The translations under genes were made by a program, and so were the position numbers. The notes beneath the pieces were generated by a model. That model was not told the DNA's origin and searched no databases. It saw nothing but the letters and a program-made list of their open reading frames with translations. From a virus (Duplodnaviria; Caudoviricetes), in the IMG/VR virus record IMGVR_UViG_3300050336_000170, positions 32,001 through 96,000 of that record: a stretch of 64,000 bases of DNA; one strand, given 5' to 3'. Below, piece by piece: positions 93 through 45,224 of this stretch (the stretch's first letter is position 1; every line of letters begins with the position of its first letter).

Positions 93-401
93 TTTTTCCT
101 TTCTTAGCCTACCAATCAGCTATTTTATTGTGTGTTTCTTTATTTGCTTTTTGTATATTAGAGGATAATTACTATCCTCTAATATTTATCGTTTTCTTTT
201 ACTTTTCTTCTCATGTTCTTTTTGATAAGTTTCCCAATCTTTTTCTTCAACAATATCGTAATGGTTTTCAAATAGCATTTTTTTAATGGCTTCTTTGGCC
301 TGTTCAGTAGTTTCATAAATTTCTCTTAAATACGATCTCAACGAAATACTCCATATTTTATACATTATTAACACCCCCATGATTTTGTATTATATCAAAT
401 A

Positions 402-1868
402 TTAGAACAACTTGCACCCACCTTCTCTATATTCAACCGATTTCTTTGAATATTCTTTTGATGTTATTTTATTTAATTCACAATAACATTTTTTACAAAG
501 TAATTCTCTATTATCATGAGAGCAATCTTCATATCGTCCATATGTCTTATAAAACATAGCAAGTTCTGTTGGATTCATTTTCTTTCCACATTTACATCTT
601 TTATTAAAGTATTTAGCAGCCATATTTTCAGATATTCCTTTAATATCTGCTAACTCTTTAATACGTTCTTTTGTTGGTGATTTATTTATCAATTCATACT
701 CTTTGCTTATACCAGTTTTCCATTTTCCATTTATGTATTCTTGCAAAGTCCATTTAAGATTAATCAATATATGTTGTATTTCATAACTTTTTGTAAGAAT
801 ATCAATCCATCGACTCCATAATGAAGGATAATATCTTTCAATTAGCAAATCAATATAATCTGATTGATATGGGCATATTAAGCATCCACAACGATTGAAT
901 CCATAATTATATTGATTATTGTAAACTAATTGATTATATAATATATGTAGCCATATATCCTCGTCTTTCCATTCTACGGCAGGAGCAAATCGAGTCCAAT
1001 TTTCTGGCATATTATCGCTACCATATTGTTCTAATTGCCATTTATGATCCATTATATAATCAAAATTAGCCCTTTTAGCACTTTCGTATTTCCTAACTCC
1101 TAAAACCATCGTAAGATTTAGATTCTTATCATATACTTTATTTATTTGTCCTTCTTTATATGTTGAACAACAATTTCTCATCAATGCAGTTGGTACTAAA
1201 TAATTCTTTATTTTAATTATCCAAGGATAAAACCCAATTTTTGGATTAACTATTCTAAGATTTATATCATATGTATCGTTTAGAATACGCTTTAATGTTT
1301 TTATTAACTTGTAGGTTTCTGCTGTATCATTAGATGTATTACAAAAATATGATTCCCATTTTGGTTTTGTATCTAGTTTTTCTAGTGCTTTGAGCCATAA
1401 ATACAAAATTACTGTAGAATCCTTACCTCCAGAATGAGCAACAGCATAATATTGATCTGGATTATCTTTTATGTATCTTACAATTCTTTCTATTGAATTA
1501 TTTTCAAGGGTTTGAATTCTATTTAAATTTAAACTTATTAATTCTGATATCTTTTTTTGTTGATTAATGTCAAGTTTATTGAAGTTATTTTTAGTGATTT
1601 TAATTTCTTTATTTTCTACTTTAAACTGAAGTAAAGGTGTTGTTTGAGTAAAATCAAGATATATTTTTGAACCATTTCGCCAACATTCTGTAGGTAAATC
1701 TATTCCTGTTTTCTCTTTAAAAAACTGCCTCTCTTTTTCAAATATCGGCTTAAATCCTATTTTTGTCTCCTTCTTTCTGTTATTTATTTCTCTTACAAGC
1801 TTCAAACCATTCGACAATACCAAAACGATATATAACGTCCGCTGTTCTAATGACATCATCAGTATCAT
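402..1868 (-). CDS. PAPS reductase / DndC-like PP-loop protein with C-terminal Cys cluster
   Basis: SGGKDS PP-loop, RNCC, GVRxxESxKR, RCGCLICP motifs; true start may be downstream of 1868. Confidence 0.85.
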   Translation of the reverse strand: MILMMSLEQRTLYIVLVLSNGLKLVREINNRKKETKIGFKPIFEKERQFFKEKTGIDLPTECWRNGSKIYLDFTQTTPLLQFKVENKEIKITKNNFNKLDINQQKKISELISLNLNRIQTLENNSIERIVRYIKDNPDQYYAVAHSGGKDSTVILYLWLKALEKLDTKPKWESYFCNTSNDTAETYKLIKTLKRILNDTYDINLRIVNPKIGFYPWIIKIKNYLVPTALMRNCCSTYKEGQINKVYDKNLNLTMVLGVRKYESAKRANFDYIMDHKWQLEQYGSDNMPENWTRFAPAVEWKDEDIWLHILYNQLVYNNQYNYGFNRCGCLICPYQSDYIDLLIERYYPSLWSRWIDILTKSYEIQHILINLKWTLQEYINGKWKTGISKEYELINKSPTKERIKELADIKGISENMAAKYFNKRCKCGKKMNPTELAMFYKTYGRYEDCSHDNRELLCKKCYCELNKITSKEYSKKSVEYREGGCKLF

Positions 1869-1954
1869 ATTTAGAAAATGTTTTCCTGGCTTCTAACTCA
1901 TCAATTTCGTATTCTCTCTATGACTTATAATTTATACCCAATGAAAATACTATT

Positions 1955-4900
1955 TTATTCACTTATATCTAGCGAATAACTATCATAATACTTCGACCAA
2001 TTTCTAAACTTAGTTAAACCACGCTGTCCTGTACTACCTCCGTTCTTATCGCTTACCATAATTAAAATATATTTAGGGTCTACTGGCAACCATCCATTAG
2101 GAATTAATGATAATAAAAAATCTTCATTTATGTTGTCTTCTGCTAGATATACATTTTCTATATTTTCGTTCATTTCGATTTCTTTAATAAGTTCGTGAAC
2201 ACCATAATGCCTATGCCTTAGTTGTATTTTCATAATTTCTTCCTCTCTTTCACCTGATAGAAACAGCATTTGATCTTGTTTAGCCCATATCATCTTCATC
2301 TACTTCAACAGCAAACTCATCGGCAAGTTCATATCCGTCAAAAATAAGACCAAACATCTTGTCAAACGCTTCAGTTAAATATGTGTCACCGTTTTCTTGA
2401 TTGCATTCCTCAACAATATGCTTTGCACAGAATTCCGCAAATTGCTTACTTCTACCACGCAGAATTTTCATATTGTAATTATCAGGACAGTTATTAAAAG
2501 CAAAAACAAGATTCTTAATAGGTATTTCAATTTTAAGCTTTTCGTTTGTTAAGATGCTGGTAAAACCAGAGTTTTCAAACTTATTCATTATCTTCCCCAT
2601 CGTCATCTGTGTCTTCTGGATCTTCACCTTCTTCATATTCATACATTGATTCTTCGTCACCTGTATAAACCTTAGTGCCACAGTTTTCACAAATGAATTC
2701 ATGGCACGAAAACAACGACAAATCTACAACTGGAATTCCGTTCTTTGGCTCAACAGAATAATCGGACACAAAACCATCATCAATAATTGTCTCTCCACAA
2801 AGAGGACATGTAACTGCCATAATAAAATTTACCATAATTAAAAATCCTTTCAATATGTTGTTATTATAATTTGTTTAATATACTATATGTAGTTGCTAAA
2901 TCACCATAGAATTGTTGATTTATTGGTTTTCAAAATAGTATTTTGCCAATACTTTAATTGCATCATTAATTTTTGATCTTTTGTCTTGACTATATGTATA
3001 ATGAAAGCCAGTTGTAAATTCTCCAATACTGATTTCTGTTGAACCATACGCAAAATGTTCACTATATAAAGTGCAATCATCGCACTGGTACAAAGATTCT
3101 TCTGTTCCATAACTACTTGCACTACGATATTTTTCTACTAAAGTTGCACCGCAAACAGGACAATTCATTTAATCACCTCTTTTATTTAAACCAATGAAAT
3201 CGGTCTTCTATCTGCTTTCAAATTCTCTACATAAATTATTAAATATAGTTTGGTCAAAAGCCTTGTTTTTATTTTTCTTAGTACAAGTCCATTCTTTATT
3301 GAACTGAGCATATGTAAGTTTTAAATATTTACATTTCCTACAAGTGTGATTAAATTCGCTCATGTTGTCTTATTACCTTTTTGTAATACTGGCGATCTTT
3401 CACACCAGTCAGCATCACATTTTTCACACGGTATATAGCCTCTCCTGATCTGAAAATCGACAATTGGATATTCAATACTCAAAGTAATTAGATACCATAG
3501 TGCTTTAAATACATTATTTGTCTGCCTATCAAATTCGTAGTCGCATGTTCCATTACGCATAAATCGAATTATATATTTACATCCCATAATTAATTTCCTT
3601 TCACTATGAAATAGTTCTTTTATTTGCTTACAATATTATTTCCTTAAACTCTGGTAATTCTTCATGCACAACTATACCTCTTACGATAGGTGTTTCAGAT
3701 AAATATATTTTTCTTAATGCGGCATTTTCAACTGATTCCTTTGCAATTTTCAAAGCATTCTTAATTGTAGTTGTACTTCCCCATGTTGACCAACAATAAC
3801 CAGTATCATCACTATAAAGCCATCCTAATTTATAATCATCTTTACAAAACTTTGCATCCTTTTGTTTTGCAATAAGTAATGGAGCATATCCTCTCATTTA
3901 AAAGTTCTCCTTATAAATATTTATATCTAGTATCAATAAAAAGTTCTTCTTTAGGATATGGGATAGGTAAATTGTACATTTGTATATAACTTCCATAAGC
4001 ACCACTCCAACTTCCTGTTCCCCATAAATAAGGACTTCCATACCCGTTAAAATGTGTGATATGATATGCTGGTTTTTCACAACATTGCCAATGTGGAATT
4101 TTAAAACAATTATCTTTTGTAATATTTTTATGAATGTCTTTTAGACTCCAATGAAAATCACAAGCATTATTAATATCTTCCAATGTTTTTCCTTCATTAA
4201 GCAATTTGTTTGCAAGTTTTTCTCGATTATGTATTCTTTCACAATCCAATGCTAAATTTTCGATAGTAAACGCTTCTCCGCAATATTCACATATATACAT
4301 TTCTTTTTTTATCATATAATTCTCCTAATAAAATGGCTCTTTCATTTTGTATTATCAATATTCATTATAAATTCCAAAAGTGTACTTTGAGTTTGCTGAA
4401 TAACGTCAGCACAATTTTTTAATGCTTCATATAGTTCTTTTGTAGTGACTTGATGATTTGAAGGTATTTTATGTATTTCACTGATCCACTCTTCAGCCAA
4501 TCTTCGCTCGTCTGTACTAAGCCACTTCTGCCAAGCACCACAATCAGAACAATATAATCCTACCTGAGAACCATTTTCTTTTATAAAAAGTTCTGCACTT
4601 CCACATTTTCTACACGCAAATGTTTTTATTTTAATTCACCACCAGTAATAATTTTTATGTATGATAAATCATATCAGCTAATTTCTTTTTACAACTAGGA
4701 CATAGATTAACTTTACATTTGTCCAAGCTAACTTTAGGCATTAGAACATAACTCCCTAATCCACCTCTTGCATCTAACCACATAGGAAAGTCATATGTTT
4801 CTTCCGTTGCGTCATCACTTTTACAAATATTACATCTAAATATAATCATTTTTCACCATCAAATTTCACTTTCATCTGTTTTTATACTTCTTTGAGTGGA

Positions 4901-5085
4901 CACCAGCTAGGTCTAACATATGCTTTATTTCCACTTTCAACTTTTTGCATTTCAAGTACTTTGTTTGTTATAGAGCAAATTCTATTATAGCTATATTGAC
5001 CTTCTAAATAACTCAATTTACATTTTGCACAGTTATCTGGAATTCTCTTTAATTTCGTTTCTGCAATAATCATATTCCTCACCAA
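1955..5085 (-). other. Cluster of short hypothetical phage CDSs, several Zn-ribbon (e.g. 2581..2853, 2920..3168, 3911..4315, 4655..4849)
   Basis: Tightly packed minus-strand ORFs with SD sequences and CxxC pairs. Confidence 0.65.
4342..4629 (-). CDS. Zn-ribbon protein missed by ORF track (IKTFACRKCGS...YCSDCGAWQKWL), probable ATA start
   Basis: Open frame, GGTGGTGA SD about 7 nt upstream of ATA, in-frame stop just upstream, two CxxC. Confidence 0.6.
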   Translation of the reverse strand: MKTFACRKCGSAELFIKENGSQVGLYCSDCGAWQKWLSTDERRLAEEWISEIHKIPSNHQVTTKELYEALKNCADVIQQTQSTLLEFIMNIDNTK

Positions 5086-5094
5086 ATCTTACTT

Positions 5095-5976
5095 TTATCG
5101 ATTGTGTTCTTTCATCCATTGCTGAACATACCATAGCTGTCCACAACCACCACCTATGTCATCTTGACCATCAGGGTTAAATACCCTTGTATTGTATCCA
5201 TGCTCAATAAAGTACTGCGTGAACTTATTTATCTCGTCTAAATTCTTATATCCTGCATCCTTCATGGTTTCATCAGCACTACAGACTACGCTAAAAGTAA
5301 AATTAAAAACAGCAGGAGAAAACATCATATATAATTTCAAGAAGTCTCCATGTTTATTGTTTATTCCATCAATACAATAGTTAAGGTAAGGTTTACGTCC
5401 AGTCTCTTTCCACCACATCATACCTGCGTCTCTCAACTTGTATAAACTCATTTTGTTTTTAAATGGAATAAGCTTATCTCTATCAAAATCATTTGATTTA
5501 TGTATTGAGAACTGTAATCCGACCTTATCTATATCTTTTGATAATTGAATTATTCCTCTGTATGCCACATCATCATCAACACCAATTGTTGATAGTAGAA
5601 GCTCTGCATTAGGGTACAAAGTATGTAATCTTCTAACAGCCTCTTCAACATTGTCCCAATTAAGCATAGGTTCTCCCATGCTCATGAACATGATCTGGAA
5701 TCGCTTCCCTCTTGAATTGACATTTTCGATATCTTTATCGTATAGGACTGTTTTGATTTGATCCACAATTTCTTCATCAGTCAAATTTCTAATGAATCGT
5801 TTTCCTGTACCACAAAAACTACATCCTACAGGGCAACCGCTCTGTGTAGAACAACAGATAACTGTTCTTTCATAGTAATCGCCGTATTTATATAATACTG
5901 TCTCAGCAACATAATCATTTTCTGCGAACACATACTTAGATACATTACCTTCGATACTTTCAAATACTTTAAACAT
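5095..5976 (-). CDS. RlmN/Cfr-family (class A) radical SAM RNA methyltransferase-like protein
   Basis: CSTQSGCPVGCSFC (CX3CX2C), MSMGEP, DDIGGGCGQL; shorter N-terminus than typical RlmN. Confidence 0.85.
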   Translation of the reverse strand: MFKVFESIEGNVSKYVFAENDYVAETVLYKYGDYYERTVICCSTQSGCPVGCSFCGTGKRFIRNLTDEEIVDQIKTVLYDKDIENVNSRGKRFQIMFMSMGEPMLNWDNVEEAVRRLHTLYPNAELLLSTIGVDDDVAYRGIIQLSKDIDKVGLQFSIHKSNDFDRDKLIPFKNKMSLYKLRDAGMMWWKETGRKPYLNYCIDGINNKHGDFLKLYMMFSPAVFNFTFSVVCSADETMKDAGYKNLDEINKFTQYFIEHGYNTRVFNPDGQDDIGGGCGQLWYVQQWMKEHNR

Positions 5977-7817
5977 TATTACTCCTTATAAAATAGCCAT
6001 TCTATCAATTACACTCTTCATTTTCTTCAAGCATCTTTGTGTATTTATCAATTGCGATTTTTAATTGTGATCTATGAATTTCAACATACTGTCTATAATA
6101 TTGAGTGTCCTCTTTTAATAATCTTTCTTCTGCATATTTTAGATTTCGTTTTAAATTTCTAATTTCATCAATAATATAGTTTTCCAAAGGCTTAGTATTA
6201 AACTCTATTGTATAATTTGTTTGCCTAACAAAATGTCTTTCACAATTTCCGCAATAATCTTCCTGCCAATCATCCTGACCTCCGTAATCTTCAGCTTCTA
6301 CGTAATTTTTATGTCCACAATACGGACATACAGCTTCAGACTCATAGGAACAAGCTAAATCATCGTATTCTTTTGGTTTAAGCTTTTCTAAATCTATTGC
6401 CATTTTCTATTTTCCTTTCTTAATTCACTATGAAATAATCTTTCTATCGGTTTTTTATCTTGTCAATAATTTTTAATATTGCAATCAAATCTGCTTCATA
6501 TTCTGATATAGTTTCTGCACATGCTTCAATATAAAACTCTTTACTATTTATGTTGTGAGTCTTATACCAAAGCAAATCTTCTCTTTGTTCGTTTATTTTC
6601 TCTTGTATATAATTCTTTTCCTTAGTCAAACTTGCATGAATATATCTTAATTCTTCGTTATCAAATTCCATATAGATTATTCCTTTCATATATATTTCCA
6701 ATCCTTAAACAGATTATTGATTTTGCCCATACACTCTTTTCTTCTGTTCCATTCCTTTTTACCATGTAGTAATATTCCTAATTCATTTACAGCTTCTTTA
6801 TCATTACTATAACCTACCATATCTAGATGTCTTTGTAATTCTATTATCCTACTATATTTGTTTTGTTTTCGATTAGATAATGAAGCAATAATAGCAACTA
6901 ATAGACAACCTATACCGATTCCTACTATACTACTAACTATTTGTAATATAATGTGATTCACAATATCACTTCCTTATAAAATATCATTTTCATTGCCACC
7001 ACAATGTATAGCTATACTTCGCACCTACTAGACCACCAGTGAATTGAATATCGTTATCTTTCAACCAGCTCCAGACATCTCCTGAATTAAAAATTATAGG
7101 ATAATCGTTCTTAAAATCGCAGATGTCTACAATATCCTTACCATTAAAAGCTGTCTCATATAACAATTTTTGTAGTTTGTTATATTCCAGTCTTGTTTTT
7201 ACTGTTTTTGTTATGTTTTTTAACTCTTCTCCTAGTTTCAATTTTATACCTCCTAATGAAATGCAAGATTGGTTTATTAAATTTCTACTTCAAAATCTTC
7301 TACTTCTTCTGTACTAACCAGATCAGATTCTCCGTATGCAAAATCATCATCTTGCCATTTTTGTTCTGCTTCTTCTTCATTATCAGCCTCTACATAGTAG
7401 AACGAATTTACTGTGAGCTTATATTTTTTCATTTATATATTTCCTTTCATACAATAAAATATTTATTACTTTCTTTTGCCTTCACTACAATATTTCATAA
7501 TACGGTTTACTGAGTATCCACTATCAGTCCAATCTGATTTTAAAGCGCATGGACAATTTTTATCATATTGGTATTGACACTCAACACAATATACAATATT
7601 TTGTGCTTTTATGATTAATTCTTCGATATCTTCAAATTCACCTAATGATTTATATTGAGCTAATTCTAGTATATTAACAAATCTTTCTGCATCTTCAATA
7701 ACAACTGGTTCAGTCCATCCGCATTGTCTACATATGTTACTATGAAAGTATGGATCATATGAAGCTGTTCTGTGGCATATTGGACAAGTCATATTTTGCA
7801 TCTCCTTAAATCTGTAT

Positions 7818-8232: not shown

Positions 8233-10124
8233 ATTTCCGAAATAAGTACCAACAGCACATCCAATTGGTGCAACCATGATAAATACAACTAGACAGGATA
8301 CATCCATGTATACTATGCTACTTTTATCAAAGTACATCCAGAATGCACCTACAATTGCGCCACTAAACAATGCTATATACGAACTGCTTAATATATTCTT
8401 TTTAAGTGCTTGAAAGTATTTTTTCATAATCTTTACTCCTTTCCTGATGAATCTCACAATTGGTTGTGAAATATTGCAATCCTACGGTCATTTAAATAAA
8501 ACCAACAACCGTCATATTTCATTCCTTTTTCGTCTACATAATAAGCAGCACCATTTGGGTGTAATCCAAACTTATCTTTCAAACCACGTATAATTGCAAT
8601 AAATTTAGTGTGTTTCGATCCTCGTTGTTCTAATTCAACGAATAACTTCCAAACTTCTTCTAAAACCTGATTTACTAAAAAATAATATTCTGTTCTCATC
8701 AATTCCCCTAATCAAAATAATCTTTTATTTGTTAATCAAAATCATCAGACGCAGTACATCTAACGGCTTTGCACTTGTTACATCTGTATATTTTGCTTAC
8801 ATATGTAATTTCAATTGATTCATTTATAAATTCCCACTCATGGTCACATTGATTATATATAATTGCTTCTTCGAAACCTTGCATAATCTCGTCATAATGT
8901 TTACTCATATTAAATTCCTCATTATATCTATTGATTTATTACCTTTTAATCACAGAAATCGTCTTCATCAAACACTATATTTATTTTAATTCCAGTGTTT
9001 TCATCGTGTTCATCTTCATTATCTATACGATCATAGATGTCGTTTATATTTTCAATAAGAAATATGTTATCTAATTGTATAACCAGATATTCATCACTAA
9101 ACCAATGTTTCATTTTCACAAATAGGTTCTTCCTCACCAAACGCGCAATTTATCGACATAACAAGCTTTTAAGTTTTGGGATTTCTTTAAGTTCCCAAGA
9201 ACAATTTCGGTGCTCTATTGCTTCTATCTCTTTTAAGACGTATTCTTTTGCTTTCTCTACAGTCTGTTTCCATGTATAAGGATAATTTAATATTTGGATT
9301 CCGTATTCACAGACTGGCAGTTTTCTTAAAATTGCACTCGCTACTCTCAAAGCCGTTTGATAATCATATGTATATTTTGTGTCACCATAATACTCAACTA
9401 ATCTAGTAGGTACATAATCAACACCATCGTTAATACAATATGAATACTCAAGGTTATCCACAGCTTGCATATGCAATACTCTATATTGATCTTTAAACTT
9501 CATAATATATACGCCGTTATCTGCACTCATGGAATTAAGCCTCCTTATCAAATCTACATTTGCTTGTGATTTGTTTTATATATTTTATATATGTCAGTCC
9601 AACCACCACGTACCGACACGCCTACTCCTGAATATTATGTAGGATACCTCTTGCCTTTTAACCATGCAGACAAATCGTAGTGTTTATTAATAAGACAATC
9701 ATATTTATCACTCAATTTATGATTGAATTTACCGCTATTCCCCACTGTTATTCACGATATGCCCCAACATGTAGTTGCCTTTCGGCATTAAATGTAGTGT
9801 GGTAAGGCAAATGAAATTAGATATTTATTTACTTAATGATAATCCATATTCGGAAAAATCTCGTATTTCTTTTATGTAAGTATATAATATTGTATCTGAT
9901 TCAAGCCCATCACAACTATCGGCTATGCTTAATATAAACTCCAACACATCTTGCTTTGTTTGCAACTGATCTTTAACTTCTTTACATATGTTCATATCTT
10001 TATTTCTCCTGTTTATTATTAAATGGTAGCCACCTGTTCATGACCAACTACCGCTTCGTGTACTTAGAAGCATATTTATACAGGATTGTCTGGGACACAT
10101 TGTAAAGAGGTGCGACAGGTCTAT

Positions 10125-10285: not shown

Positions 10286-10289
10286 ATAT

Positions 10290-10363: not shown

Positions 10364-10950
10364 ATATGTAATTAGCCTATACCCTACCCTCCCTATTCTC
10401 TTTCCCCTGAGTTATTACAAGCAGTCCATCCCAGACCTTCAGCGTCCTTGCTTGCCCCTTATGTAAATGAAATATTGAATCTATCTACCGTTACAAAAGC
10501 TACACCTACTAATAACTTCTCCATTATCATAAAATTCTACTAGTTTTCCGAAAAATATCTCAGGATGATTCCAATTATAATCATGATATTTTTGGTTCCC
10601 CTCTTGTGTATAATAAAATTCCTGTTCATATTCTCCATCTGGATCACGTTTAAGTTCAATCATTAACTTTATAATACCGTTTTCAAGCGGAAGCCATTTT
10701 GTCATTTCCTATACCTCCAGATAAAAGCTAGATTTTATCATTATTTTTACTGTTACTTTTATTTAAGTTATGTATATAGTTTTCCAATTGCTCACACTTG
10801 TCTTTGCCACAACATTCTTTTTTGCTACACATTGGACATATAACTAACATAGCTAATCTTAAAGCATTCTTATGTGTCATGTATTTTCTATCCCGTTTTC
10901 TTTTCAAACAATTCATTAAGTATTCTAGGAGCATATTGTTGATTTTCAAC

Positions 10951-11511: not shown

Positions 11512-11591
11512 TAATTCACCACCAGTTTATTTATAATAGCATTAATCAATTAAATACTCAATGTTTTTATTTTATTTAACTTATTAATGAT

Positions 11592-11620
11592 ATTATACAA
11601 GACATTTCCAATAATGTCAA
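11592..11620 (-). promoter_or_regulatory. Consensus leftward sigma-A promoter
   Basis: TTGACA-17 bp-TATAAT on minus strand. Confidence 0.8.
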
Positions 11621-11697: not shown

Positions 11698-12654
11698 TTA
11701 ATACCCAAAAGCTTTCTTCCACATGTTATATGCTAATTCAATGTCTTTTGCCTTTTGAGTAGCAACATATTCTTTTTTCAGTGCATACTCTTTATTTTCA
11801 ATATCCATTTCTACATATTCACTAAACGATATTGATATATTCTCTTTTTCGAGTTGATACCACCTATAAAACAGTCCAGATTCATATACTCTAATTGGAC
11901 TCAGTTTTATATATTGTCCTGTTTCTTCTTTATACTTTTTGTTAAACGTAGTAATCTTTGCTCCAAATTGTTTTGCTCTTAATACATTTGTCTCTTTTAA
12001 TAATCTTAATAAATATGGTGAATCGCACAGATCAAAAAATAGCTTTTCTTTTTTAGTTCTCTTCATTAATTGATTTGATGGCACTGTTATCTGTAATAAA
12101 TACTTAAAGATTGGACTAGGGGTTATAGTTTTGTTGCTTGTTTTAATAATATTATCTTCTAAATTTACTTCATCACGCCTTAAAATAACAGCCTCTTCAT
12201 TTGTAAATCCCTCATATAGTAACCAAAAATAAATCCTGTACATATTCATAAAATGTAATTCCTCAACTGGAGGATATACAACATCTAATACGTCTGCTAG
12301 ATGTTCAGGACTTTTCAACATTTCTCGTTCAAATACATATGAGTTATCTATCTCTGATGCAGATATTAATGCTAAATGATTTTCTAGTATATTCGTTTTA
12401 CCGTTAATAATACACCAATCTACGTATTGTTTTAGTCTGCTTATATTCCATGCAATACTTTTTATATCACGGCTACCAAGTGAAGCTATACTAATTTTAA
12501 GTTCATCATAATTCATCTCTGAAATGTCTTTATCAAAATCACTTTCAGCTTTATTATATAGTTTTTTAAATAATATTTTGTAACTCTCTTTGCCTTTTTC
12601 ATCCTCATTTAAACTATTAATAAACTGAAGTTTTTGATTTTCATTATACATCAT
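11698..12654 (-). CDS. yopR: MrpR/YopR(SroF)-like master repressor (catalytically degenerate tyrosine-recombinase fold)
   Basis: MYNENQKLQF...AESDFDKDISEM...LKQYVDW...LLYEG...SPIRVYESGLFY resembles SPbeta YopR; lacks catalytic R and HxxR; syntenic with yopQ-like gene. Confidence 0.7.
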   Translation of the reverse strand: MMYNENQKLQFINSLNEDEKGKESYKILFKKLYNKAESDFDKDISEMNYDELKISIASLGSRDIKSIAWNISRLKQYVDWCIINGKTNILENHLALISASEIDNSYVFEREMLKSPEHLADVLDVVYPPVEELHFMNMYRIYFWLLYEGFTNEEAVILRRDEVNLEDNIIKTSNKTITPSPIFKYLLQITVPSNQLMKRTKKEKLFFDLCDSPYLLRLLKETNVLRAKQFGAKITTFNKKYKEETGQYIKLSPIRVYESGLFYRWYQLEKENISISFSEYVEMDIENKEYALKKEYVATQKAKDIELAYNMWKKAFGY

Positions 12655-13982
12655 AATTGCTCACCCCACTTTGAGATGAAGTATTTTTCAATTTTTACCT
12701 CATCTGTTGCCTTTCTCTCTATAGGTGATACCGTCTTTCTCCAATTAATAGATTTTAATAATGATTCAAGTTTATTGCGCCAGTTTAGATCATTCTCTAG
12801 TTGCTTTGATAAATAGGTGTATCCAACCCATGTCACAGCTTCAGTTGACCATTTAGTTTTTCTAGCTAGCTCATAGTCTTTAAAATCATCTATCATCACT
12901 TCGGATAGATAGTTATAAAATTCAACTAACCAATCCTTGACTTTTTGTGCCTGTGAATTTAATGAAAAACTATTAACATTATAATATTTCTGTATTGCGT
13001 TAGCTAAAGTAATTTGAACAATAAACCCTCTCTCTATCCCTGTTGTTGTTATATTTCGCTTATATACATCTTCTGCATTAGGATCAATTTTAATCCACTC
13101 AACTATTCTATTTGCATAATTACGTTCCATTGTTTCTTTGTGTCTAGTATTTGGCGGTGTAGCTTTCCATTCCTGAGATATCATATCTTTAACTGTATCA
13201 ATATCATAGAAAGTAAAAGCTATCTCAAAATATCTATTAGCAAACAAATCTCTAAGTTCTGGATAGTTTGAATATGCATATTCTGCACCTAAAGACCTAT
13301 GATTACCGTCTGGTATAATTATATCTCCATCTTTTGGCAAATAAATGCATTTGTTTTCTTCATCATAGGTATAACTTGATAACCCATCATTGATTAAATT
13401 AAGTCTTATCATGTTGTAATGATATCTATCGTTTGCAATTTTTTCTTCAATTTCTCTTACTTTTTTCTTATTAATCTCTATTTGTTTTAATATTTCTGTG
13501 CCTTCGGAATTTTTAATTGATTTGCTTTCCCTTTGTAACTCTGGTGTTACTCTAATAATACCTTTTCTTTTTGACTCTGCCAACTGTTGAACAGACATAA
13601 TACATGAATATTGATTACTTGATAACTGCACAACGTTGTGTAGCACATAAAGATCGTCTATCTTAATATCATCTCGACTAAAGAACTTGGAATTTTTTAT
13701 TTCTACTGGAGTAAAATAATCAGATACTTTACAAACATAAACTTTTTGTTCTACTTGATTACCAATTAATTCCATTGCATAGGCAAACCAATATAACTCA
13801 AAATCTTTAAGACTATCAAGTTCAACAGATTTCATAACTAATTTCTTATAATCAGCTATTGTAAATCTTCCTTCTTGAGTCATAAAATCTTGAACTTTAC
13901 TTTTAAATTCTTCATTAGAAGAGTTAAATAGCTTTTTCTTTATTAGACTAATTAACTCTTCTCGGCTGTTTTCATTCTTCAT
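12651..13982 (-). CDS. yopQ: YopQ(SroE)-like ParB/DndB-fold protein
   Basis: ELQR and IPDGNHR motifs; SD AAAGGATG before ATG at 13982; directly upstream of the mrpR-like gene as in SPbeta. Confidence 0.7.
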   Translation of the reverse strand: MKNENSREELISLIKKKLFNSSNEEFKSKVQDFMTQEGRFTIADYKKLVMKSVELDSLKDFELYWFAYAMELIGNQVEQKVYVCKVSDYFTPVEIKNSKFFSRDDIKIDDLYVLHNVVQLSSNQYSCIMSVQQLAESKRKGIIRVTPELQRESKSIKNSEGTEILKQIEINKKKVREIEEKIANDRYHYNMIRLNLINDGLSSYTYDEENKCIYLPKDGDIIIPDGNHRSLGAEYAYSNYPELRDLFANRYFEIAFTFYDIDTVKDMISQEWKATPPNTRHKETMERNYANRIVEWIKIDPNAEDVYKRNITTTGIERGFIVQITLANAIQKYYNVNSFSLNSQAQKVKDWLVEFYNYLSEVMIDDFKDYELARKTKWSTEAVTWVGYTYLSKQLENDLNWRNKLESLLKSINWRKTVSPIERKATDEVKIEKYFISKWGEQL

Positions 13983-14001
13983 AAATACACATCCTTTTGT
14001 A

Positions 14002-14451
14002 CTAAGCTGTGGCAAGTACTCGCTCTTCGACATTAATATACTTCTTACGCAATCTTTCTACCATCGCAATTATAGATTCATTATCCATATGAATCAAAAG
14101 TGGCGTTTCCTCTGTACATGCTTCTGCGATCTTTACTATATATTCTCTTGGAAGAGTTGTGATATACTCACCTATATCGTCTTTAGACCTGAGTTGTTCT
14201 TGCTCACATAAAGCAATGCTATCCTTAGCCAATCCACATTTTTTAGCATCTAAGAAAACGTGTGTTGGCATATAAGCTTTGTTATGTTCAGCCCCTGTAA
14301 GCGGAACTGCATGGATAATAGGACTATAACGATTTCCTATATCATTTTGTGTTATGATAGCAGGCCGCCATCCAGCTTGAGAGTGCTTGTTATGTTTATC
14401 TCTTTCAAAATAAACCATATATACACTATTCATCTTGGGAATAAAGTTCAA
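14002..14451 (-). CDS. mazF: MazF/PemK-family endoribonuclease (orphan)
   Basis: SQAGWRPAIITQNDIGNRYSP...VPLT...PTHV...DSIALCEQ parallels B. subtilis NdoA; catalytic Arg and Thr retained. Confidence 0.85.
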   Translation of the reverse strand: MNFIPKMNSVYMVYFERDKHNKHSQAGWRPAIITQNDIGNRYSPIIHAVPLTGAEHNKAYMPTHVFLDAKKCGLAKDSIALCEQEQLRSKDDIGEYITTLPREYIVKIAEACTEETPLLIHMDNESIIAMVERLRKKYINVEERVLATA

Positions 14452-29612: not shown

Positions 29613-32029
29613 ATTAGTCTCTAGTACAAAATACTTTCCTGACAGAATAATGTCTAACTTTATTTCAGTATCGATATTGATATTTGTACCCAATTTCCAT
29701 ATTTCATCAATATCAATTTCATTTGTATGACAGCTTACTAATACTTTGTTTCCTTCCTGTAGTGCCTTGAATGCTTTATCAATTTTTACAGGCTTCAACC
29801 GTTCACCCCCTTACCCTATGTATCCTGTTTACATTACTATTATATGCTGATTGTTTTGTTTTGTCTAGTTTATTTTATTTAATTTGTATATAAAGTTTAA
29901 GCGGTTTTATTGGTTACTATGCTACCTGTTTGCTTAATAGCATTGCGAATATTAAATACAATGTCATATACTTTTTGACTTCCTGTACCATTTTTGCTTT
30001 TCCAATAACGATAACTTACACCACCGTATTCTGTTATGGTACATTCAGCCAATGTGTTTAGTATCCAACCTCTTGTGCGAATTGGAATATTTATATTATA
30101 TTTGTCTGCTAGTTTTACAATCAAATTACCTCCGTTAATTGTTCCACCATTTAATATGATATTTTCTGTTGATTTAATCATTTCATTCTCTTGTCTTGCC
30201 TGTTCGTCTGCTTCTATTTTCTTTTTCTTTTCACGTTCTTCTTTTTTAATGGCTTCTTCCTGCTGTTTAATTGCTTTAATTTTTGCACTAATTTCAACGC
30301 ATTTATCTAATTCTTTTAAGAAAGCTGCACCGTGAAAATCTGCAAACTTCCCATTGTTGTCTCTTGCATCAATATATTGTGCTATACAACGATCAATGCC
30401 TAATTTAAGAAATTCAGCCTGTAACTGTTCGTTATTACCGTGTTCAGAAATAAATGCTTCTTCTTTTGCTGTTTGTTCTTCTACTAATGGTTTATATTCC
30501 TCATAGTTTTTACCTTTATAAATGTCATGAAATATTTTCTCACGATTTTCAGAACCATGATAGAATTCTTGAATTAAATATTCATAATTACTTCTCTGTT
30601 TTAAATCATATTCTGTATAACCAAAAGACACAAGATAATCATTTGTTTCAATCATATAATAATACTTGTCATCATCATTTTTTGCGTATTCTTTATCGGG
30701 TTTTCCTGCACTAATCCACAACGGATAGTCTATACCGTCACAAGAAAGTGTTTTTACATATTTTGCCCTGATCCGTTTTCCATCGCGGTTAAACATACCA
30801 TTAATAAAAAGAGGCTTCATAAGTTTTGCATGTTCCTCTATTTCTTTTTCATCAGTATGAAACACTTCATTTTTTGTTTCTTCTGGTTTTGTATAACGTG
30901 GAGATAGTCCATATTTTTCTACAGCACTTTCAATCATTGCATGAAATTTTTCAATACCATAATTTTTAAATGCTTCTTCAAATTTATTAGTATCACATAC
31001 GCCCAAACCGCTTTTGCCTTCTGTTAGTTTCCCATCAATTTCAAATAAATCTAGTCCATATGAATTATGAAATATTTTTGCATTTTGTACTGGTTCAAAC
31101 TTATGCATCGTTTTACCGTTTTCATCTTTTCCAATGTTCTTTAATATGTAACAAACATTACTATGTTTCTGTTCAGTCATTTTAATATTACCTTCCTACT
31201 CCAATAAATAGTTTATGCTTGCCCCATTTTATAATTTTAAAATCTACCTTGTCTAATGTTTGTACTAAATCTTTTATATTCCGTCTAACTTCAGATATTG
31301 ACGGAGCAATGCAGCAATCAACTAAAATTTTAGGTAAGAATCTTTCATTTGTGAATACCGTCATGTCCTTTTCTGTTTGTTTCCAATCATCCATATCAAA
31401 AGCAAACAATACAGAGGGATGAACGAGTAAATCACCTATAACAACATTTTCTATATGCTTCATGTTAACCTCATTTTTCTATTAAATCATTAATTCCATT
31501 AAATATTTTCGACATAATTGATTGATACTTGATATTGGCTTTTTCTTTTGCTTCTTCCATAGTGCAAAGAATAAAGTCGGCTTGTAATTGATCATTAATG
31601 TAATATGAATAATAATATTTATCATCATAGTTTATGGCAGGAATAGAAATAGTAAAAGATATTGATTTAACAAAAGGTATATTGATTATCGCTTCATAAC
31701 CACTCAATTCTCCTTTAAAGTATTTTTCATACCAATTCAAGTTTTTGAAAATCATTTTGTGTTTACTCCTTATCAATATATTGTATTCTTTCGCTGTTTA
31801 TATACTACATCTTGACGCAAAATCACCATAAAATTGCCGTTTTATCGTGGTATCTTTATACAATCAGGATGACAACCATAATATTCTATTCCATATGCAA
31901 TTACATCATATCTCTCAAAATCTTCGTCATGATATCCTGCACGTTTACCAATTACTTCACCATAAATCCATTCACTTTCTTTGATTTTTGAATTATATAC
32001 TTCAATTAAACATTTCTGATACATTTTCA

Positions 32030-35727: not shown

Positions 35728-36282
35728 AGCAAAATTCTCCTTTTATTATGTATTAATTTATTTTAATTTGTTTTAAACACATTACAACATACCAGAATTG
35801 ATATATTGTAAACTGTCTAAAAGACAGTTAGATTTTTATCTTATATTTTCTCTTAAAATCATTTGTACTTCGTTAATTCCTTTAGTCCCCCAAATTGAAC
35901 ACATAAAATATACATTATCTAAATTATTCAATTCAAAGGAAATTTTTTGTTTGTCTCCTGATGCTTTGGCATATCTATAGTCCCTTAACGCATTTTGAAT
36001 AACTTGTTCTCTATCTTTGTTTGTCATGTTATTAACCTCCTAAAAATCAAGATAAATATCTGTTTTTATCGGTTTATCTTTTCTTTTCAATTACAATATC
36101 AAACCTATCCTCACCGAAGAAAAGAGTTAATCCACATTTTCCATCTTCTGTATGCCAATCGACATAATTTTCACCAAGAACAGGCACAGCAATAAACTTA
36201 TTGATAATGTCTTTTCTTAATTCGTTTTCGTTATACATTGGATACTTCATTTTATATCACTCCTATATAATATATTTTATCT

Positions 36283-37421: not shown

Positions 37422-39241
37422 TTGTAAACACTCCTTTTCATTACATTATTTTATTTGATTTGATTATTAGTGCCGTTTGAAATTATAACTCTTGATCCGC
37501 TTGTTTCGCAGATATGCGTTATATGCCATATAAACGATAAATCTAAACAATATCAAGCATATAAGCACAAACCCAACTTGAAAAAGTACCTCTAAAAATA
37601 CTAGAAACATAATTTTGTATCCTTCTTTCATTAGTATAACACTGTTTACGAGTTTTACAATATGCTTTTGCTTTAAATAATTAACATATTTTAGACTTTA
37701 ATGTTGTGCAATTCAACCGTTTGACTGATTCAATATAAATATAGTCCAGCATGTTTTCAGCTTCGTCTGCCGTGTATCCTTGCATCATCAGATAGTATTT
37801 AGCATATTCCCTTGGAGTTAATTCCAGATTGACGTTACCGCCGAAATAAGTTGTTTTCATGATTTTATATCTCACTTTCATATTAATATAATTTTTGTTT
37901 TTTGGATGCTGTTTGTTCTGTTTGCTGTTTGTATTATATTATATGATTATGTTTTGTTGTATGTTACTTTTATTTAATGTATATGTTATTTTTCTTTTCG
38001 TCCAAAGCTTAAATTAATTGTATTCATATAAGTATCAATTACCGCATGATAACAATAATATTTATTGCCTTCTTCAATGATATATAAATCTCTAAGTGCT
38101 ATATTGTATATATCGGTCTTATCTGATTTTATATCGTTGTTTGTGTTTAGTATATGGGTAATTACGGTTACTGTTTTGGAATGCCCTGTGTTTATTTCAC
38201 GCTGGATATTATCAGATAGATTTACTTTTATCATGTTATTACACTCCTATGTTATTTATTTTGATTTGATTATTACTACTTAATACGCTTTACAATGTAT
38301 TATAGTTGATATGATATAACACATTGTAAAAGGCATTAAGCCTTTTATGTTAAAAAATAATCTTCGTCATGTTTATACCTTCTTTCAATCAAGACAAAAT
38401 CACCGTTTTATAGTGCTAAGCCTTCAAATATTCGCCATCTTCGATATAATCCGCTTTAATGTCTTTTAGTTCATCGATTTTATTTTTCAATTCAGATATT
38501 GATACATTTATCATAATAGGCCGGATAAACTTTTTAATTAAATCATCTCTGTGTTTACATGATTCTTCATTATCGCCCCACATATAATGCATAATTTGAT
38601 CGTCTGACATGTTTGATATTTCATTGTTTAATGCCTTTATTACCTTATTTTTGTCACGTTCTGTTAGTGTTGAATTCGCCCATACATCATCGAATATATG
38701 GTTCTCTTCTGTTATTTCATATATCGCTTCACGGATCATATTATTATCAATAAACCAATTTTCGTTATATTTTTCAGGCGATATCATTTCAATATTTGGA
38801 TACTTTTGCTTGAATTCTTCGGCATATTCTTTACTTATAAAGAAATAACCTAATTCAATATACTCATGGTTGTTGTACTCTTCAAGTAGCTTATCTCCGT
38901 ATTCAGTAATAATGTTTGTGTCCTCTATAAAATCTTTTCTGTTAATTTCCTTATGAAAATCATAAATAAAAGTTTTGTTTACTAAAAGATTTGACATTGT
39001 AAAAACTCCTTCAATCAAATTTTGTTACTGTTTTGTAATGCAACCAATACACGGTTTTATTGTGCGGATTTTAATTTTACTTCTAAAGCTTTTATTTGTT
39101 TATTATAATTATCTATCTTATTTTTATCTGTTTCTGTTTTTATTTTCTCTTTATAATACTCGATTGCTACACTTAAGAATTCTTTATCAACATATTTATA
39201 CATCTTAATTTTACTCCTTTAATCAAGATAAAACTAATATT

Positions 39242-39595
39242 TCATATGGATTCTATTACTTTTTCTTTCAATATTTGATATCTGCGAATTGTGTCTTTTT
39301 CTTTTGTTCTATTAATCTTAAACGCTTTTGAATAATTAGGAATATTGGGTAAATATTGTTCTTTGGTTAAATCAATTATTTCACCATTAACAACATTATA
39401 GTTATGATGTTCATGTTTAATCCTGTATATATCTCCTCCAAAGAAGTCTTGAACAATCATAGCTGTTATCATACAGTGACCATATGTCGGATTGTCTTTA
39501 CTCCAGTTAGCTTGATAGTTTTTATGTGCTGTTTGTGCGCTGTATGCTTGCCTTAACTTATTATCAAGTTCTTCTATAGTCATAGGCATTACCAT
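39242..39595 (-). CDS. YunG-like protein
   Basis: WSKDNPTYGHCMITAMIVQDFFGG...HNYN...DLTKEQ. Confidence 0.6.
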   Translation of the reverse strand: MVMPMTIEELDNKLRQAYSAQTAHKNYQANWSKDNPTYGHCMITAMIVQDFFGGDIYRIKHEHHNYNVVNGEIIDLTKEQYLPNIPNYSKAFKINRTKEKDTIRRYQILKEKVIESI

Positions 39596-41533
39596 TTTCT
39601 TGTATTCTGTTTTGCTTCGCGTTCTGCTTTTTTCTTATCCTCATATGCTTGTTCTGATTTTGTTAACTTCATTTCTAAAGGTACAATGATCATAGATGAT
39701 ATATTGTTTTCACATTCTTTAATTTTGTCCGCTAATTGTTCAGCCGTGTAAAGTTTTGCTAAATATATTTTACTGTCTCTTAACGCAAGTTTATAATTGT
39801 TAATCCATTCTTGTGTATCTCTTACATATGACTTCTTTTTCTTTTCTGCCGCTCCGTATGTTTCGTGACAGGAAACACAACTGTCACCATACATAAAAGC
39901 ATATCTGTAAACATGACTTGTGCTAGTTCTGATTTGTTTTCCGTTATAGAAAAATTTCATATTATATTACCTCACATTAATGTTATTATTGCTCATACTC
40001 AAAACAAATTGACTTTGTTTCAAGTATCGGCAATAATCTGCCGATATTTTGTTATTTGTTTTTATCTTCCCAAAACGGAGTATACGCAAAAGGAATGTCA
40101 TACCACAAAACATGATCAATATTATCCTTGAATGTTTTTACATTCTGCTTAAATTCGTATTCATTGACAAGTTTATCGGAAATTGAATTTTTACGTAAAT
40201 ATAAATCGCTCTGCCAATTTGAAATATCTGATTCTTGCATTAGTTCTTTAGCTAATCCGTAAATATCCTTTTTTGATTCTTTGATGTGATTATCCATGTT
40301 GTTATTCATTTTGTTTTACTCCTTATTAATAGAATAGTCCATTGCCATATCATGAAAAATATGCCCGTTATCGTCTTTAAGTTTTAACCATATAAAACCA
40401 TGTTCATAATATGAATTGAGAACAATATATTTTTTGTCTTGCTTGTAAACTATTTCCTCCATTTAATTACTCCATTCTTAAATTATTGTGGACAAAATTA
40501 CCATTTGATTAAGCATTTACATATTGATTATTATCAATTTTTTCTCTGTGCTTTTCAAGTCTAACAGAGCCTTGTATATTGTCTCTGTATTCTTTATAAC
40601 TTCTTTTTGCGTCTTTCAATGTGTATTCGCTGTTTTCACATTCCCATCTATAGCCGTAATTAGTCATGATATCCCATCTGTCTATTGTTTTACGTTTATA
40701 TGTTGCTATTGTTATAACCTCCATTAATAAATATTATAGTCTGCCCTTTCTGCTAACCATTCTTTAAAGTCATAAAAATCGCCTATTGGATTAGAATGCA
40801 TACCATTTTTTGAGGATTGTTCAATAATCATGTTATGCGCTCCAACGTCAGAAGCTATATATTTAATGGCTTTATATTGTTCCTTTGTTGGCAGCTTGTA
40901 AAATTCAATACAATTTGACTCAGGCATAACTCTAATGTTGCCACGCTTCATAAATTTAACCATTTGTTTAGTTGTTACTGCATATTCTGAAGGATCATAT
41001 TTAAAGAATTGACAAACATTTCTATGATCCTGCGTCCTTCCCATGCCTCTACCTTCTGAATAATCTAATAATTGACCGTCGGGCAGAATATAACCAGCAT
41101 CATAAAAACTATCTGTTATACCGTATTCTTTAATTGCTTTTTCTTCGATAGTCATTATATTAACCTTCTTTCATTATAATTTAATTCAATTTAGTATTCA
41201 TCAATGCATACAATACCGATTGTTTTGATTAGCTATTGTTTACAATGGATTGTATGCATTAGTTTAGACTAAATTAGTTGTTATTTATTTCTCTATAACA
41301 TTATCAATGATATAAACATCATGTCTATAACAGTCTCTAAAATCGCTTTTAGCTCCATTTTCTGTTAATGCAGTAAAAGTATCATGTCCCTTTGTTCCGT
41401 TACTACGTGTAAAATAAACGATATAATCTTTTAACATTGTTATTCACTCCTATAAAATGTTTATTTGGTGGGTTTAGATTGTTTTAATGCTCATTACTGC
41501 ACACGATTGTAAAATCATATCAGTTTATCAACA

Positions 41534-43619: not shown

Positions 43620-44294
43620 ATATCTTTACTGATTATATTATCAAAACAGCGGATCAAGCGAACGCATATAGTTGTAACTTGCAACTATTTTAAATTGCAA
43701 CTAATAATCAATAATCAGGCCGACAATATACCGATAAAATCATCATTTCATGTCTACTATAGCAGTATGAATAGTATAAAACCATTGCAATTACTGGACT
43801 AATCGGCTTAAATGTCCGATACCTATAAAACACGACATTTCTAAATCCTTGCAAATACAAGGTTTTTTCGTGGTATGGGGGCATAGTTTACATTTTTTGA
43901 TCCTTCATTTTCGGCTGGATATCCCCTAGTACATCCAGTCCTAAGACAGCAATATTTCCATCGAGCGAATCGACTATAAACCAATAATCCAATCACCTAA
44001 CCACCCACCAAATACCCAAAACAATTCGGTACAAACTTCGATAAAACTCCCTAACCTCAACACTATTAACCAGATCACAAACCAACTAAATTTATAAGTA
44101 ACAATAAATTACAAACATCACAATCAATTAGAATCATTGAAAATACTATATTTTTACCGATAATGACCTATATTACACAAAACACAAACAAAATAAATAC
44201 ATTCAACAAATCCAATAAACAACCAAGATAACCGCTATCCACTATCTACCCACTATCTATTCATAAATTATTTAAAATTATTTCTCTATACCTA

Positions 44295-44323
44295 TTGACA
44301 TTAGTGGTAATATTTGATACAAT
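44295..44323 (+). promoter_or_regulatory. Sigma-A promoter of the recombinase gene
   Basis: TTGACA-17 bp-TACAAT. Confidence 0.7.
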
Positions 44324-44366
44324 GAGATTGTAAAGAAATGCAATTATCGAAAGGAGCAACAAAACA

Positions 44367-45224
44367 ATGACAAATACAGTAACTAAATTACATGAAGATA
44401 TAAACACAACCCTTAATAATATTATCCAATTCCCCTATCCAACCAGTAATCAGACAATTAATATATCAAAATTAAAAGACACAAAAATCTATACTCCAAT
44501 AAATCTAACCAATTCATGTGATATCATAGACAACTCAATTAAAATAAAACACGATTCTGAACCAATAAAAAGTTTATCAGATATTAAACTCATTGCAGAT
44601 CACCTTCTGTCACAGAAAAAATACAGAGACTATATGCTATTTATCATTGGAATTAATTTTGGACTAAGAGCTTCAGACTTGCTTAGACTAAAATTTTCTG
44701 ACATTATCAACACAGACGGTACATTCAAATATAGTTTTGAATTAATTGAGCAAAAGACCAGTACAACAAGAAAGCACATTAAATGTAGATACATTCAGAT
44801 AAATAAAGCAGTACAAAATGCAGTAATAACATATCTTACTGAATATTCAGACACAACATTATCTGACTATCTTTTTACAAGTCAGAAACATGATACAGAT
44901 GAAGATAAAAATATTACAGACAAAACAAGACCTATAAGTGTAAAACAAATGGAAAGAATAATAAAAGATGTATGTAAAGAACTATCCATCACAGGCAGAT
45001 TTGCAACCCATACACTCAGAAAGACATTTGGATATCATATGATGCAATTGCATAACAACGATCCTAGATTTCTTGCTATACTTCAGAAGATATACGGACA
45101 CAGTAGCAGTACTATTACACTTAGCTATATAGGTATCACACAAGATGAAATAGATGTAGCTTATGAAAATCTTAACCTTGGACTTAGAGAAGGATTAATT
45201 GACAGTGATGTTTATGAAGGATAA
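44367..45224 (+). CDS. Tyrosine recombinase (catalytic-domain type, intact active site)
   Basis: GLRASD (R), EQKT (K), HTLRKT (HxxR), YGHSS (H), LSYIG (Y). Confidence 0.92.
   Translation: MTNTVTKLHEDINTTLNNIIQFPYPTSNQTINISKLKDTKIYTPINLTNSCDIIDNSIKIKHDSEPIKSLSDIKLIADHLLSQKKYRDYMLFIIGINFGLRASDLLRLKFSDIINTDGTFKYSFELIEQKTSTTRKHIKCRYIQINKAVQNAVITYLTEYSDTTLSDYLFTSQKHDTDEDKNITDKTRPISVKQMERIIKDVCKELSITGRFATHTLRKTFGYHMMQLHNNDPRFLAILQKIYGHSSSTITLSYIGITQDEIDVAYENLNLGLREGLIDSDVYEG

Follow-up and report, generated by a model that had tools for sequence, protein, structure and literature searches.

A strictly spaced dyad at early-gene junctions of a large SPbeta-like phage: a possible crossover point for gene exchange

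The window analysed here, a stretch of 64,000 nucleotides that spans bases 32001-96000 of the 131,585-bp virus record IMGVR_UViG_3300050336_000170 (G+C about 30%), comes from a phage that its gene content and gene order place as a large, distant relative of Bacillus phage SPbeta, and its leftward early arm is punctuated by an 18-bp dyad in which two inverted 6-bp arms flank a 6-bp centre. This motif is non-random, strictly spaced and located at gene junctions. Among the phages of the SPbeta group, which carry the same dyad, sequence alignments indicate that homology breaks at the edges of the dyad, with the dyad and its centre retained, and an even chance is given here to the explanation that the dyads are crossover points for the exchange of gene units, or cassettes, between related phages. 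We infer the same role across the roughly 60 sites of the phage in the window.

Large temperate phages of Firmicutes carry small genes of unknown function in long arrays, the turnover of which is poorly understood, and many such small genes in other phages are defence or counter-defence genes. A junction site that marks gene exchange would, if this is what the dyad does, provide a physical rule for phage mosaicism, and the presence of the dyad in SPbeta, a genetically tractable model phage, makes the proposal directly testable in Bacillus subtilis. If a dedicated enzyme is involved, the dyads may also represent a natural counterpart of engineered cassette exchange, and possibly a tool for modular phage engineering.

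Occurrence and anatomy of the dyad

The strict pattern was defined as AYNAAA-N6-TTTNRT (18 bp; ATRAAA-N6-TTTKRT when written in the direction of transcription). It has 26 exact matches in the window, from 1941 to 43734, against 4.14 +/- 1.93 in dinucleotide shuffles, none of which (0/100) reached 26. When the spacing between the arms was scanned from 0 to 15 in the left arm of the window, 26 matches were obtained at spacing 6 and 0-4 at every other spacing, and the rightward arm of the window has none at spacing 6. Over the whole 131.6-kb record there are 51 matches at spacing 6, compared with 3-11 at other spacings and with 7 for a reversed-pattern control. The leftward arm (genome 1-76.2 kb) contains 47 of these 51 sites, and the array thus extends about 32 kb past the left edge of the window. 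No excess was found in the late arm, where 14 sites with at most one mismatch occur in 17 kb and 14.0 are expected.

The recurrence of the dyad in the early arm had been reported in a preliminary description made from the sequence alone, and it is borne out by the shuffles, the spacing test and the reversed-pattern control; the absence of copies from the structural arm and of any junction site from the repressor operon at 11-17 kb, reported in the same place, is likewise agreed. Taken together, the one-mismatch sites show hardly any enrichment (83, compared with about 70 for the other spacings); roughly 15 of them stand at junctions directly before a Shine-Dalgarno (SD) sequence, with the same anatomy as the strict sites, and together with the 26 strict copies they make the earlier figure of about 40 copies in the window a fair one. 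The list of sites said to bracket single genes needs some qualification: those at 5988, 7256, 17684, 18213 and 27074 stand as one-mismatch copies, and the one at 10467, with two mismatches, is weak. All 47 spacers of the leftward arm differ from one another, which says little by itself, since about 76% of random sets of 47 spacers are also all-different.

The dyad is coupled closely to the punctuation of the genes. Around the start of the site, at no more than +/-9 nt, there is a stop codon, mostly in register +1 (A-TAA-AA or A-TGA-AA), and the 5' arm often includes the stop codon that ends the upstream gene; base frequencies place the SD of the next gene at a fixed distance, 2-6 nt past the 3' arm, with the next start codon 6-41 nt downstream for most sites. 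The arrangement noted earlier, with the site between the stop codon of one gene (often inside the arm) and the SD of the next, is thus confirmed by distances as well as by base frequencies. Given that strong sigma-A promoters are few in this arm and do not coincide with the dyads, the sites lie within long operons.

With regard to the kind of molecule in which the site is read, no covariation between the arms was found: positions 3 and 16 can pair in 20 of the 47 sites (21.0 expected) and positions 2 and 17 in 42 (42.7 expected), and neither a covarying column pair in or around the site nor extended pairing with the flanks was detected. The arms therefore vary independently, which argues against a conserved RNA or DNA hairpin and for a double-stranded DNA site of a paired protein; an RNA hairpin is ruled out on this ground. 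The half-sites are symmetric, the residual asymmetry being accounted for by the overlapping stop codon and SD, and the conserved part amounts to only 6 bp per arm. The independence of the arms indicates a pair of equivalent half-sites on double-stranded DNA for a putative paired protein, and the arms would then be recognised by a dimer. A promoter for the host or phage polymerase is also unlikely, as the dyad is symmetric, adjacent to the SD and separate from the few strong promoters, and no -35/-10 elements and no stable stem occur within it.

Homology borders at dyads in the SPbeta group

The same element occurs in the phages of the SPbeta group. SPbeta itself has 20 matches at spacing 6 and 4-9 at other spacings, 13 of its copies being the perfect ATAAAA-N6-TTTTAT, and several combine a stop codon in the arm with an SD downstream; with up to two mismatches allowed, 30 sites are found in 34 kb, against 15.3 expected. 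In phi3T there are 10 dyads (1.96 expected), in Goe11 9 (2.0 expected) and in Goe14 10 (2.0 expected). Orthologous dyads were recognised through their 6-bp centres, and breakpoints were taken from alignments together with a hand count.

In five alignments within this group, homology breaks at or beside a dyad whose slot-specific spacer is kept. For example, at the slot with the centre TGATAA (SPbeta 99497, Goe11 14265, Goe14 16868) SPbeta has a left flank, containing yorD, that bears no relation to the left flanks of the other three phages right up to the edge of the dyad, and from the opposite edge onward it is phi3T that diverges from the rest, with a novel gene in its right flank. At the TCGGTC slot the left flank of Goe11 is unrelated up to the dyad, and the dyad together with a 27-nt leader is common to three phages (the copies of SPbeta and phi3T are identical, and that of Goe11 has a single substitution), after which different genes follow. 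The TATTCC and GATCAA slots present the same pattern of breaks. A whole block is bounded in this manner where yorT of SPbeta is replaced by an extra methylase in phi3T: each side has a dyad, SPbeta and phi3T agree in the two centres (TATCTC and GATCAA), and homology stops no more than about 10 nt from either dyad. Further centres, namely TTTGTC, GTTTTA, CTAATA, TTCTAA and TGTTGA, were found at syntenic slots with different neighbours.

By hand count on the annotation, six of the nine junction dyads of phi3T separate an SPbeta-like gene from a novel one, and two more are at indels; against the background of 31 such junctions in 93, this corresponds to a binomial p of about 0.04. In the comparison of SPbeta with phi3T over the last 34 kb, 7 of 15 homology ends fall within 40 nt of a dyad (up to two mismatches), for which the expectation is about 1.3 by length and about 3.75 if all ends are placed at junctions. 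The check proposed in the preliminary description, namely whether the breakpoints of gene presence and absence in relatives fall at the dyad, has thus given a positive result, repeatedly in the SPbeta group and in one case within the phage's own lineage.

This last case involves short relatives (L006-L008, with an MrpR 58% identical), in which mrpR is followed by a terminator, by a promoter conserved with that at window 11620 and by a dyad with the centre TCTAGC. The corresponding strict dyad of the window, 10721..10738, has the same spacer; the local match is 28 of 34 positions, the flanks on both sides are unrelated, with an unrelated gene after the dyad in L006-L008, and the window has about 800 nt extra, with two open reading frames (ORFs), between promoter and dyad. 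This is the SPbeta pattern, in one instance. MrpR-based scans of viral and genome contigs for close relatives found nothing usable.

Two other features of these slots were observed. The centre of the phi3T dyad (L029, 10964-10981) is TTATCA, the exact reverse complement of the TGATAA found in SPbeta (99497-99514), Goe11 and Goe14, as if it had been flipped, and no reading considered here explains this. In SPbeta, nearly the same 27-nt leader, TTAGARTAAAAATAAAATWWRTGGAGG, follows two dyads (113681-113707 and 132764-132790), so that in some slots the conserved junction unit comprises about 45 nt rather than 18.

Junctions of laboratory recombinants

Recombination between phi3Ts and SPbeta was studied by Dragos et al. 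(bioRxiv 10.1101/2020.05.06.055103, Suppl. Table 1), who tabulated 16 homologous junctions and one "non-homologous" junction from hybrids and extrachromosomal DNA. Chromosome coordinates were converted to the SPbeta record as 2,286,447 minus the chromosome position, and three published junctions agree with BLAST ends under this conversion. The sole "non-homologous" junction, N1 (chromosome 2170033), falls at 116414 of the record, which is the first base of the TATTCC dyad. Junction 7, listed with 30 bp of homology, falls at 69415, and this homology is a dyad-like site at 69423-69440; apart from a stretch of about 30 bp with ATAAAATGCATATTTTAA at its centre, the two phages have no sequence in common there. 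As placed by this conversion, the two events with the least homology both sit on dyads.

Proposed mechanism of exchange

According to the explanation preferred here, the 6-6-6 layout, with its two inverted AYVAAA arms and a centre that differs at every junction, would serve as a linker between the gene units of the early arm. A gene or block bounded by dyads could be replaced, inserted or lost through recombination between dyads with the same centre, the partners being related phages that infect, or are resident in, the same cell. In such an exchange, the upstream unit would keep its stop codon, and the downstream unit its SD and leader. The candidates for the enzyme would be a Xer-type recombinase similar to YomM, another protein with the tyrosine-recombinase fold, or the homologous-recombination proteins of phage or host acting on the short conserved junction; in other words, the mechanism may be either a dedicated recombinase or short-homology recombination.

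A narrower version of this proposal is held to be rather doubtful, namely that SPbeta-like phages possess a dedicated, site-specific and "addressed" cassette exchange in which a tyrosine recombinase, with the YomM-like protein as the leading candidate, cuts the 6-6-6 dyads. The slot-unique centre would then be the overlap region, so that only equivalent junctions of co-resident phages recombine, and accessory genes could be swapped slot by slot with the genome left unscrambled. Engineered cassette exchange with heterospecific lox or FRT sites works in this way, with identical arms and differing centres of which only matching ones recombine, and the same principle would make the junctions "addresses".

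A number of observations weigh against crossover at the dyads. Most swap borders in the SPbeta group lack a strict dyad, which is present at about 6-8 of 31, and the enrichment is modest against a junction-restricted null (p about 0.04-0.06). The right breakpoint of the TCGGTC slot lies after the shared 27-nt leader and not at the dyad, so that short-homology recombination fits as well as a site-specific enzyme. Among the laboratory junctions, 15 of the 16 homologous ones use ordinary long homology, and the coordinate listed for phi3Ts at N1 is 14 nt away from the copy of the TATTCC dyad in that phage, so that the event, as tabulated, is not a clean dyad-by-dyad exchange. The lineage of the phage in the window provides only one comparative case, two other mrpR-carrying contigs being 100% identical. 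Six-base arms are short for a tyrosine recombinase, and, among viral records examined for the YomM-like gene, six of 30 that bear it are not enriched in dyads and one in which it is not detectable has 7 dyads against 0 controls. Lastly, the restriction to the early arm, the absence from the repression operon and the tight coupling to the SD would also suit a regulatory site.

Candidate recombinases and the integron comparison

Two tyrosine recombinases come into consideration. The one within the window is a short Xer-like protein encoded at 44367..45224 (+), divergent from the array, which looks catalytically intact from its sequence, and the preliminary description had proposed it as the enzyme of an integron-like array. 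That link is not upheld: a homologue with 41% identity comes from a relative whose 16.7 kb contain a single dyad, no homologue is found in the dyad-bearing SPbeta, and the family consists of short recombinases common in small phages of Streptococcus, Clostridium and Bacillus. The copy described in the non-coding gap before this gene is indeed present, 615 nt away from it, and is a dyad of the ordinary kind.

Membership among the integrons was considered as well and set aside, as there is no IntI-type integrase (the 44367 protein scores 20.3 bits on the integron-integrase model TIGR02249, whose cut-off is 265), no attC-like folded site, and neither an attI-like feature nor a Pc was found beside the recombinase. 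The best matches of this protein are generic Xer models, far below their cut-offs.

The other recombinase is the YomM-like protein, encoded in the late arm outside the window, which is the best-conserved protein between this phage and SPbeta (E 6e-39) and has counterparts in at least 67 viral contigs, of which many are large. Across 30 large viral records that bear it, 530 dyads were counted against 194 reversed-pattern controls, with 24 of the 30 enriched at least 2-fold, and a YonO-bearing phage without a YomM-like gene has no dyads. The co-occurrence, which is not clean, makes YomM a suggestive lead only. The YomM-bearing records have no DNA similarity to the window.

The wider search for relatives added the following. 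A scan of viral contigs for a dyad followed by an SD returned mostly one orthologous site in an unrelated phage family and was uninformative. A relative found through YonO (48% identity, GC 43%) is devoid of dyads and has other repeats instead. In a dyad-free viral contig with a YonO homologue (L028), a repeated element of roughly 25 nt, TTGTAAACATTTTGTGAACATTT, occurs at about 2900-3300, just upstream of two sigma-A-type promoters, and that phage probably has an operator of its own.

Alternative explanations

The most serious rival to exchange is a regulatory array similar to the stoperators of other temperate phages, in which a putative dimeric phage or host protein would bind at the early-arm junctions and block or tune the transcription of the operons; the borders of gene swaps at dyads would then be a by-product of a conserved junction sequence, as in the regulatory cassettes of T4-type phages, the promoter-early stem-loops (PeSLs). 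This is regarded as a real possibility, though not a probable one. The sites lie within transcribed operons with few promoters, at nearly every early-arm junction, and are absent both from the repression operon, whose expression is required in the lysogen, and from the late arm of the YonO-like polymerase; symmetric half-sites around a free centre resemble the operator of a dimer, and stoperators themselves are a precedent (PMC9283540, PMC6550527). On the other hand, the peaks of the SPbeta immunity repressor are all explained by promoters that carry its own site, described below, and dyads distant from these gave none; dyads of SPbeta also occur in late and cargo regions; and the regulatory role by itself leaves unexplained the laboratory junctions that lie exactly on dyads. 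By analogy with the T4-type PeSL cassettes, the two roles could coexist.

A more specific regulatory proposal, also made in the preliminary description, takes the dyads as operators of the MrpR-like repressor encoded at 11698-12654, equivalent to the SPbeta repeated element (SPBRE), which is the site of the MrpR repressor and the only repeated element described in SPbeta (Kohm et al. 2023, PMC10516654). As rebuilt from the SPbeta record, SPBRE is about CAAATACAAAWAATATGTAT, about 20 bp including a conserved centre, with the dyad ATACA-N7-TGTAT, and its about 10 copies occupy the 17 bp between the TAGACA and TATAAT elements of conserved promoters; a weight matrix made from seven copies recovers all ten loci published in SPbeta by chromatin affinity purification with sequencing (ChAP-seq).

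The two elements are alike in that both are repeated dyads in the same phage family, and SPBRE is recognised by an integrase-fold protein. The 11698 protein is a true member of the MrpR family beside a YopQ homologue, its tyrosine-recombinase fold suits inverted arms around a centre of 6-7 bp, and 5 of the 10 SPBRE promoters of SPbeta have a dyad within about 90-280 bp. Identity of the dyad with SPBRE was nevertheless rejected, as SPBRE has another sequence, a 7-bp centre and a location in promoter spacers rather than at SD-proximal junctions, and SPbeta carries both elements, so that the dyad is not merely a diverged SPBRE. The SPbeta dyads far from any SPBRE are absent among the published MrpR binding peaks (ChAP-seq, PMC10516654), which argues against MrpR as the binder. 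An operator role for the MrpR-like protein is thus disfavoured by analogy and is considered unlikely.

As a separate observation, the start of yorM as annotated in the SPbeta record (L009, 10881-11070) encloses both an SPBRE-type promoter (110904) and a dyad (111028), and the true start codon of this gene probably lies about 190 nt further downstream.

Quite unlikely, too, is a signal at the level of the polycistronic mRNA, either a processing site or a translational operator 5' of the SD, used by a nuclease such as MazF or a repressor such as RegA. The fixed distance to the SD, the location of all sites in transcribed junctions and the MazF-like protein encoded by the phage would fit with such a signal, but dyad symmetry is meaningless for a single-stranded RNA site, no base-pair covariation speaks for a hairpin, and copies in SPbeta also lie between convergent and divergent genes. 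Finally, the motif might be an artefact of AT-rich intergenic DNA, in which stop codons (TAA or TGA followed by AA) and the T-rich sequence before the SD mimic the pattern, and both the frequent stop codon within the 5' arm and the weak enrichment of the one-mismatch class could be read in this manner. This is highly improbable, and effectively refuted by the spacing test, as only spacing 6 is enriched, at least 5-fold over every other spacing, and the reversed pattern (7 against 51) and the shuffles agree.

Comparison with known systems

No published description of the dyad element was found; in SPbeta only SPBRE has been reported as a repeated element. The closest likeness in the borders of exchange is to the PeSLs of T4-type phages (Arbiol et al. 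2010, PMC2839356; Comeau et al. 2014, PMC4122927), which are also short repeated elements between small non-essential genes in hyperplastic regions, and in which the borders of insertions, deletions and replacements between related phages also fall. PeSLs are composites of promoter and terminator hairpins, tens of bases long, that recombine by homology, whereas the dyads have 18 bp, no promoter, no stable hairpin and a slot-unique centre.

The dif modules bounded by pdif sites on Acinetobacter plasmids (XerC/XerD; PMC6449649, PMC13141974) similarly place accessory genes between many sites with inverted arms and a 6-bp centre, and they are shuffled between replicons by a recombinase not encoded beside them. 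The pdif sites differ, however, in their 11-bp arms, defined XerC and XerD halves and alternating orientation; the dyads have 6-bp, AT-only arms and occur in a phage. The likeness to integron cassettes lies in co-oriented small genes punctuated by sites of a recombination type; the genes of the dyad array, in contrast, keep their own SDs inside phage operons.

The stoperators of the cluster A mycobacteriophages (PMC9283540, PMC6550527) are comparable in number and place, with dozens of short sites in short intergenic gaps of transcribed regions of a temperate phage. Each stoperator is a 13-mer without symmetry that follows the direction of transcription and is recognised by a monomeric immunity repressor, unlike the symmetric dyads, and the SPbeta-type repressor has a different known site.

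Sites and gene layout in the window

The window phage and SPbeta share, in the same order, a YorL-type DNA polymerase, YorJ, YopQ and the MrpR-family repressor, and further colinear genes encode the single-chain RNA polymerase YonO, the terminase, portal and tape-measure proteins and the YomM-like tyrosine recombinase. At 1-44 kb of the window the genes run leftward and are mostly small ORFs without a known family (Pfam); the late arm runs rightward, and the YonO-like single-chain RNA polymerase (48502..51024, +) marks the start of this dyad-free arm.

The individual sites are given here without strand. Strict dyads whose arm holds the stop codon lie at 1941..1958 (gene 1955-2299), 5081..5098 (radical-SAM gene), 6976..6993, 17921..17938, 27878..27895 and 31828..31845, and that at 24999..25016 has the stop codon in its spacer, with an SD following. 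An SD also follows the strict dyad at 4328..4345 and stands directly after those at 27461..27478 and 41452..41469, and the copy at 39228..39245 likewise precedes an SD. Other strict dyads at junctions are those at 3606..3623, 4858..4875, 8711..8728, 26753..26770, 27286..27303, 28385..28402 and 40492..40509.

The strict copy at 24342..24359 is fully symmetric (ACCAAA...TTTGGT), with TTGACA directly after it, that at 26051..26068 lies near the 3' end of a gene, and a further one is found at 38394..38411. The last, 43734..43751, lies in the 1.5-kb gap between the arms, before the start of the recombinase gene. Two strict matches are possibly due to chance, one inside an ORF (9096..9113) and one overlapping the start codon of ORF 16943-17422 (17405..17422). 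One-mismatch dyads before an SD occur at 5988..6005 (radical-SAM gene), 7256..7273, 9547..9564, 17684..17701, 23123..23140, 23378..23395, 27074..27091 and 36052..36069.

A TnpB (IS605 OrfB) gene at 18253-19458 (-), without tnpA, lies between the one-mismatch dyad 18213..18230, downstream of it, and the strict dyad 19792..19809, upstream of the unit that it forms with a ribbon-helix-helix (RHH) gene; in the relative L010, TnpB is near the repression operon as well. A cluster of three tRNA genes (Lys-ttt, Gln-ttg, Leu-taa) is situated at 10125-10363 (-) in the dyad-punctuated operon, just after the two-mismatch site 10467.

The dyad-free repression operon (11698-14451, -) is composed of a PemK/MazF-like gene at its head (14002..14451, -), a YopQ homologue (12651..14033, -; BLASTP against SPbeta YopQ, E 4e-19) and the MrpR-like (YopR-like) gene of the integrase-fold repressor (11698..12654, -; Pfam MrpR_N_CB, E 7.6e-16; 22% identity to SPbeta MrpR). 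No antitoxin gene was seen in it, and the same order of three genes occurs in the relatives L005, L010 and L011. The consensus sigma-A promoter TTGACA-17-TATAAT at 11591..11620 (-), conserved in L006, would drive the dyad-punctuated leftward operon from about 11.5 kb.

Outside the window, a 24-nt direct repeat, 79% identical (L032, 6360-6383 and 8299-8322; genome 102360-104322), brackets the 3' 1.9 kb of the gene for an 830-aa late-arm tail protein. It was rejected as a part of the dyad system, its palindrome CTAAT-N6-ATTAG being a different motif.

Accessory genes of recognisable families in the leftward arm, all on the minus strand, encode a PAPS-reductase-like protein (402-1868), a radical SAM protein (5095-5976), a pyrimidine-dimer glycosylase (25341-25892) and a DUF4942 plus Dam-like methyltransferase (32030-33664). 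A Pistol self-cleaving ribozyme (Rfam RF02679; 58.4 bits, gathering score 34.5) is present at 36282-36352 (-), directly downstream of a GmrSD-like gene (36360-37421) and within the early operon.

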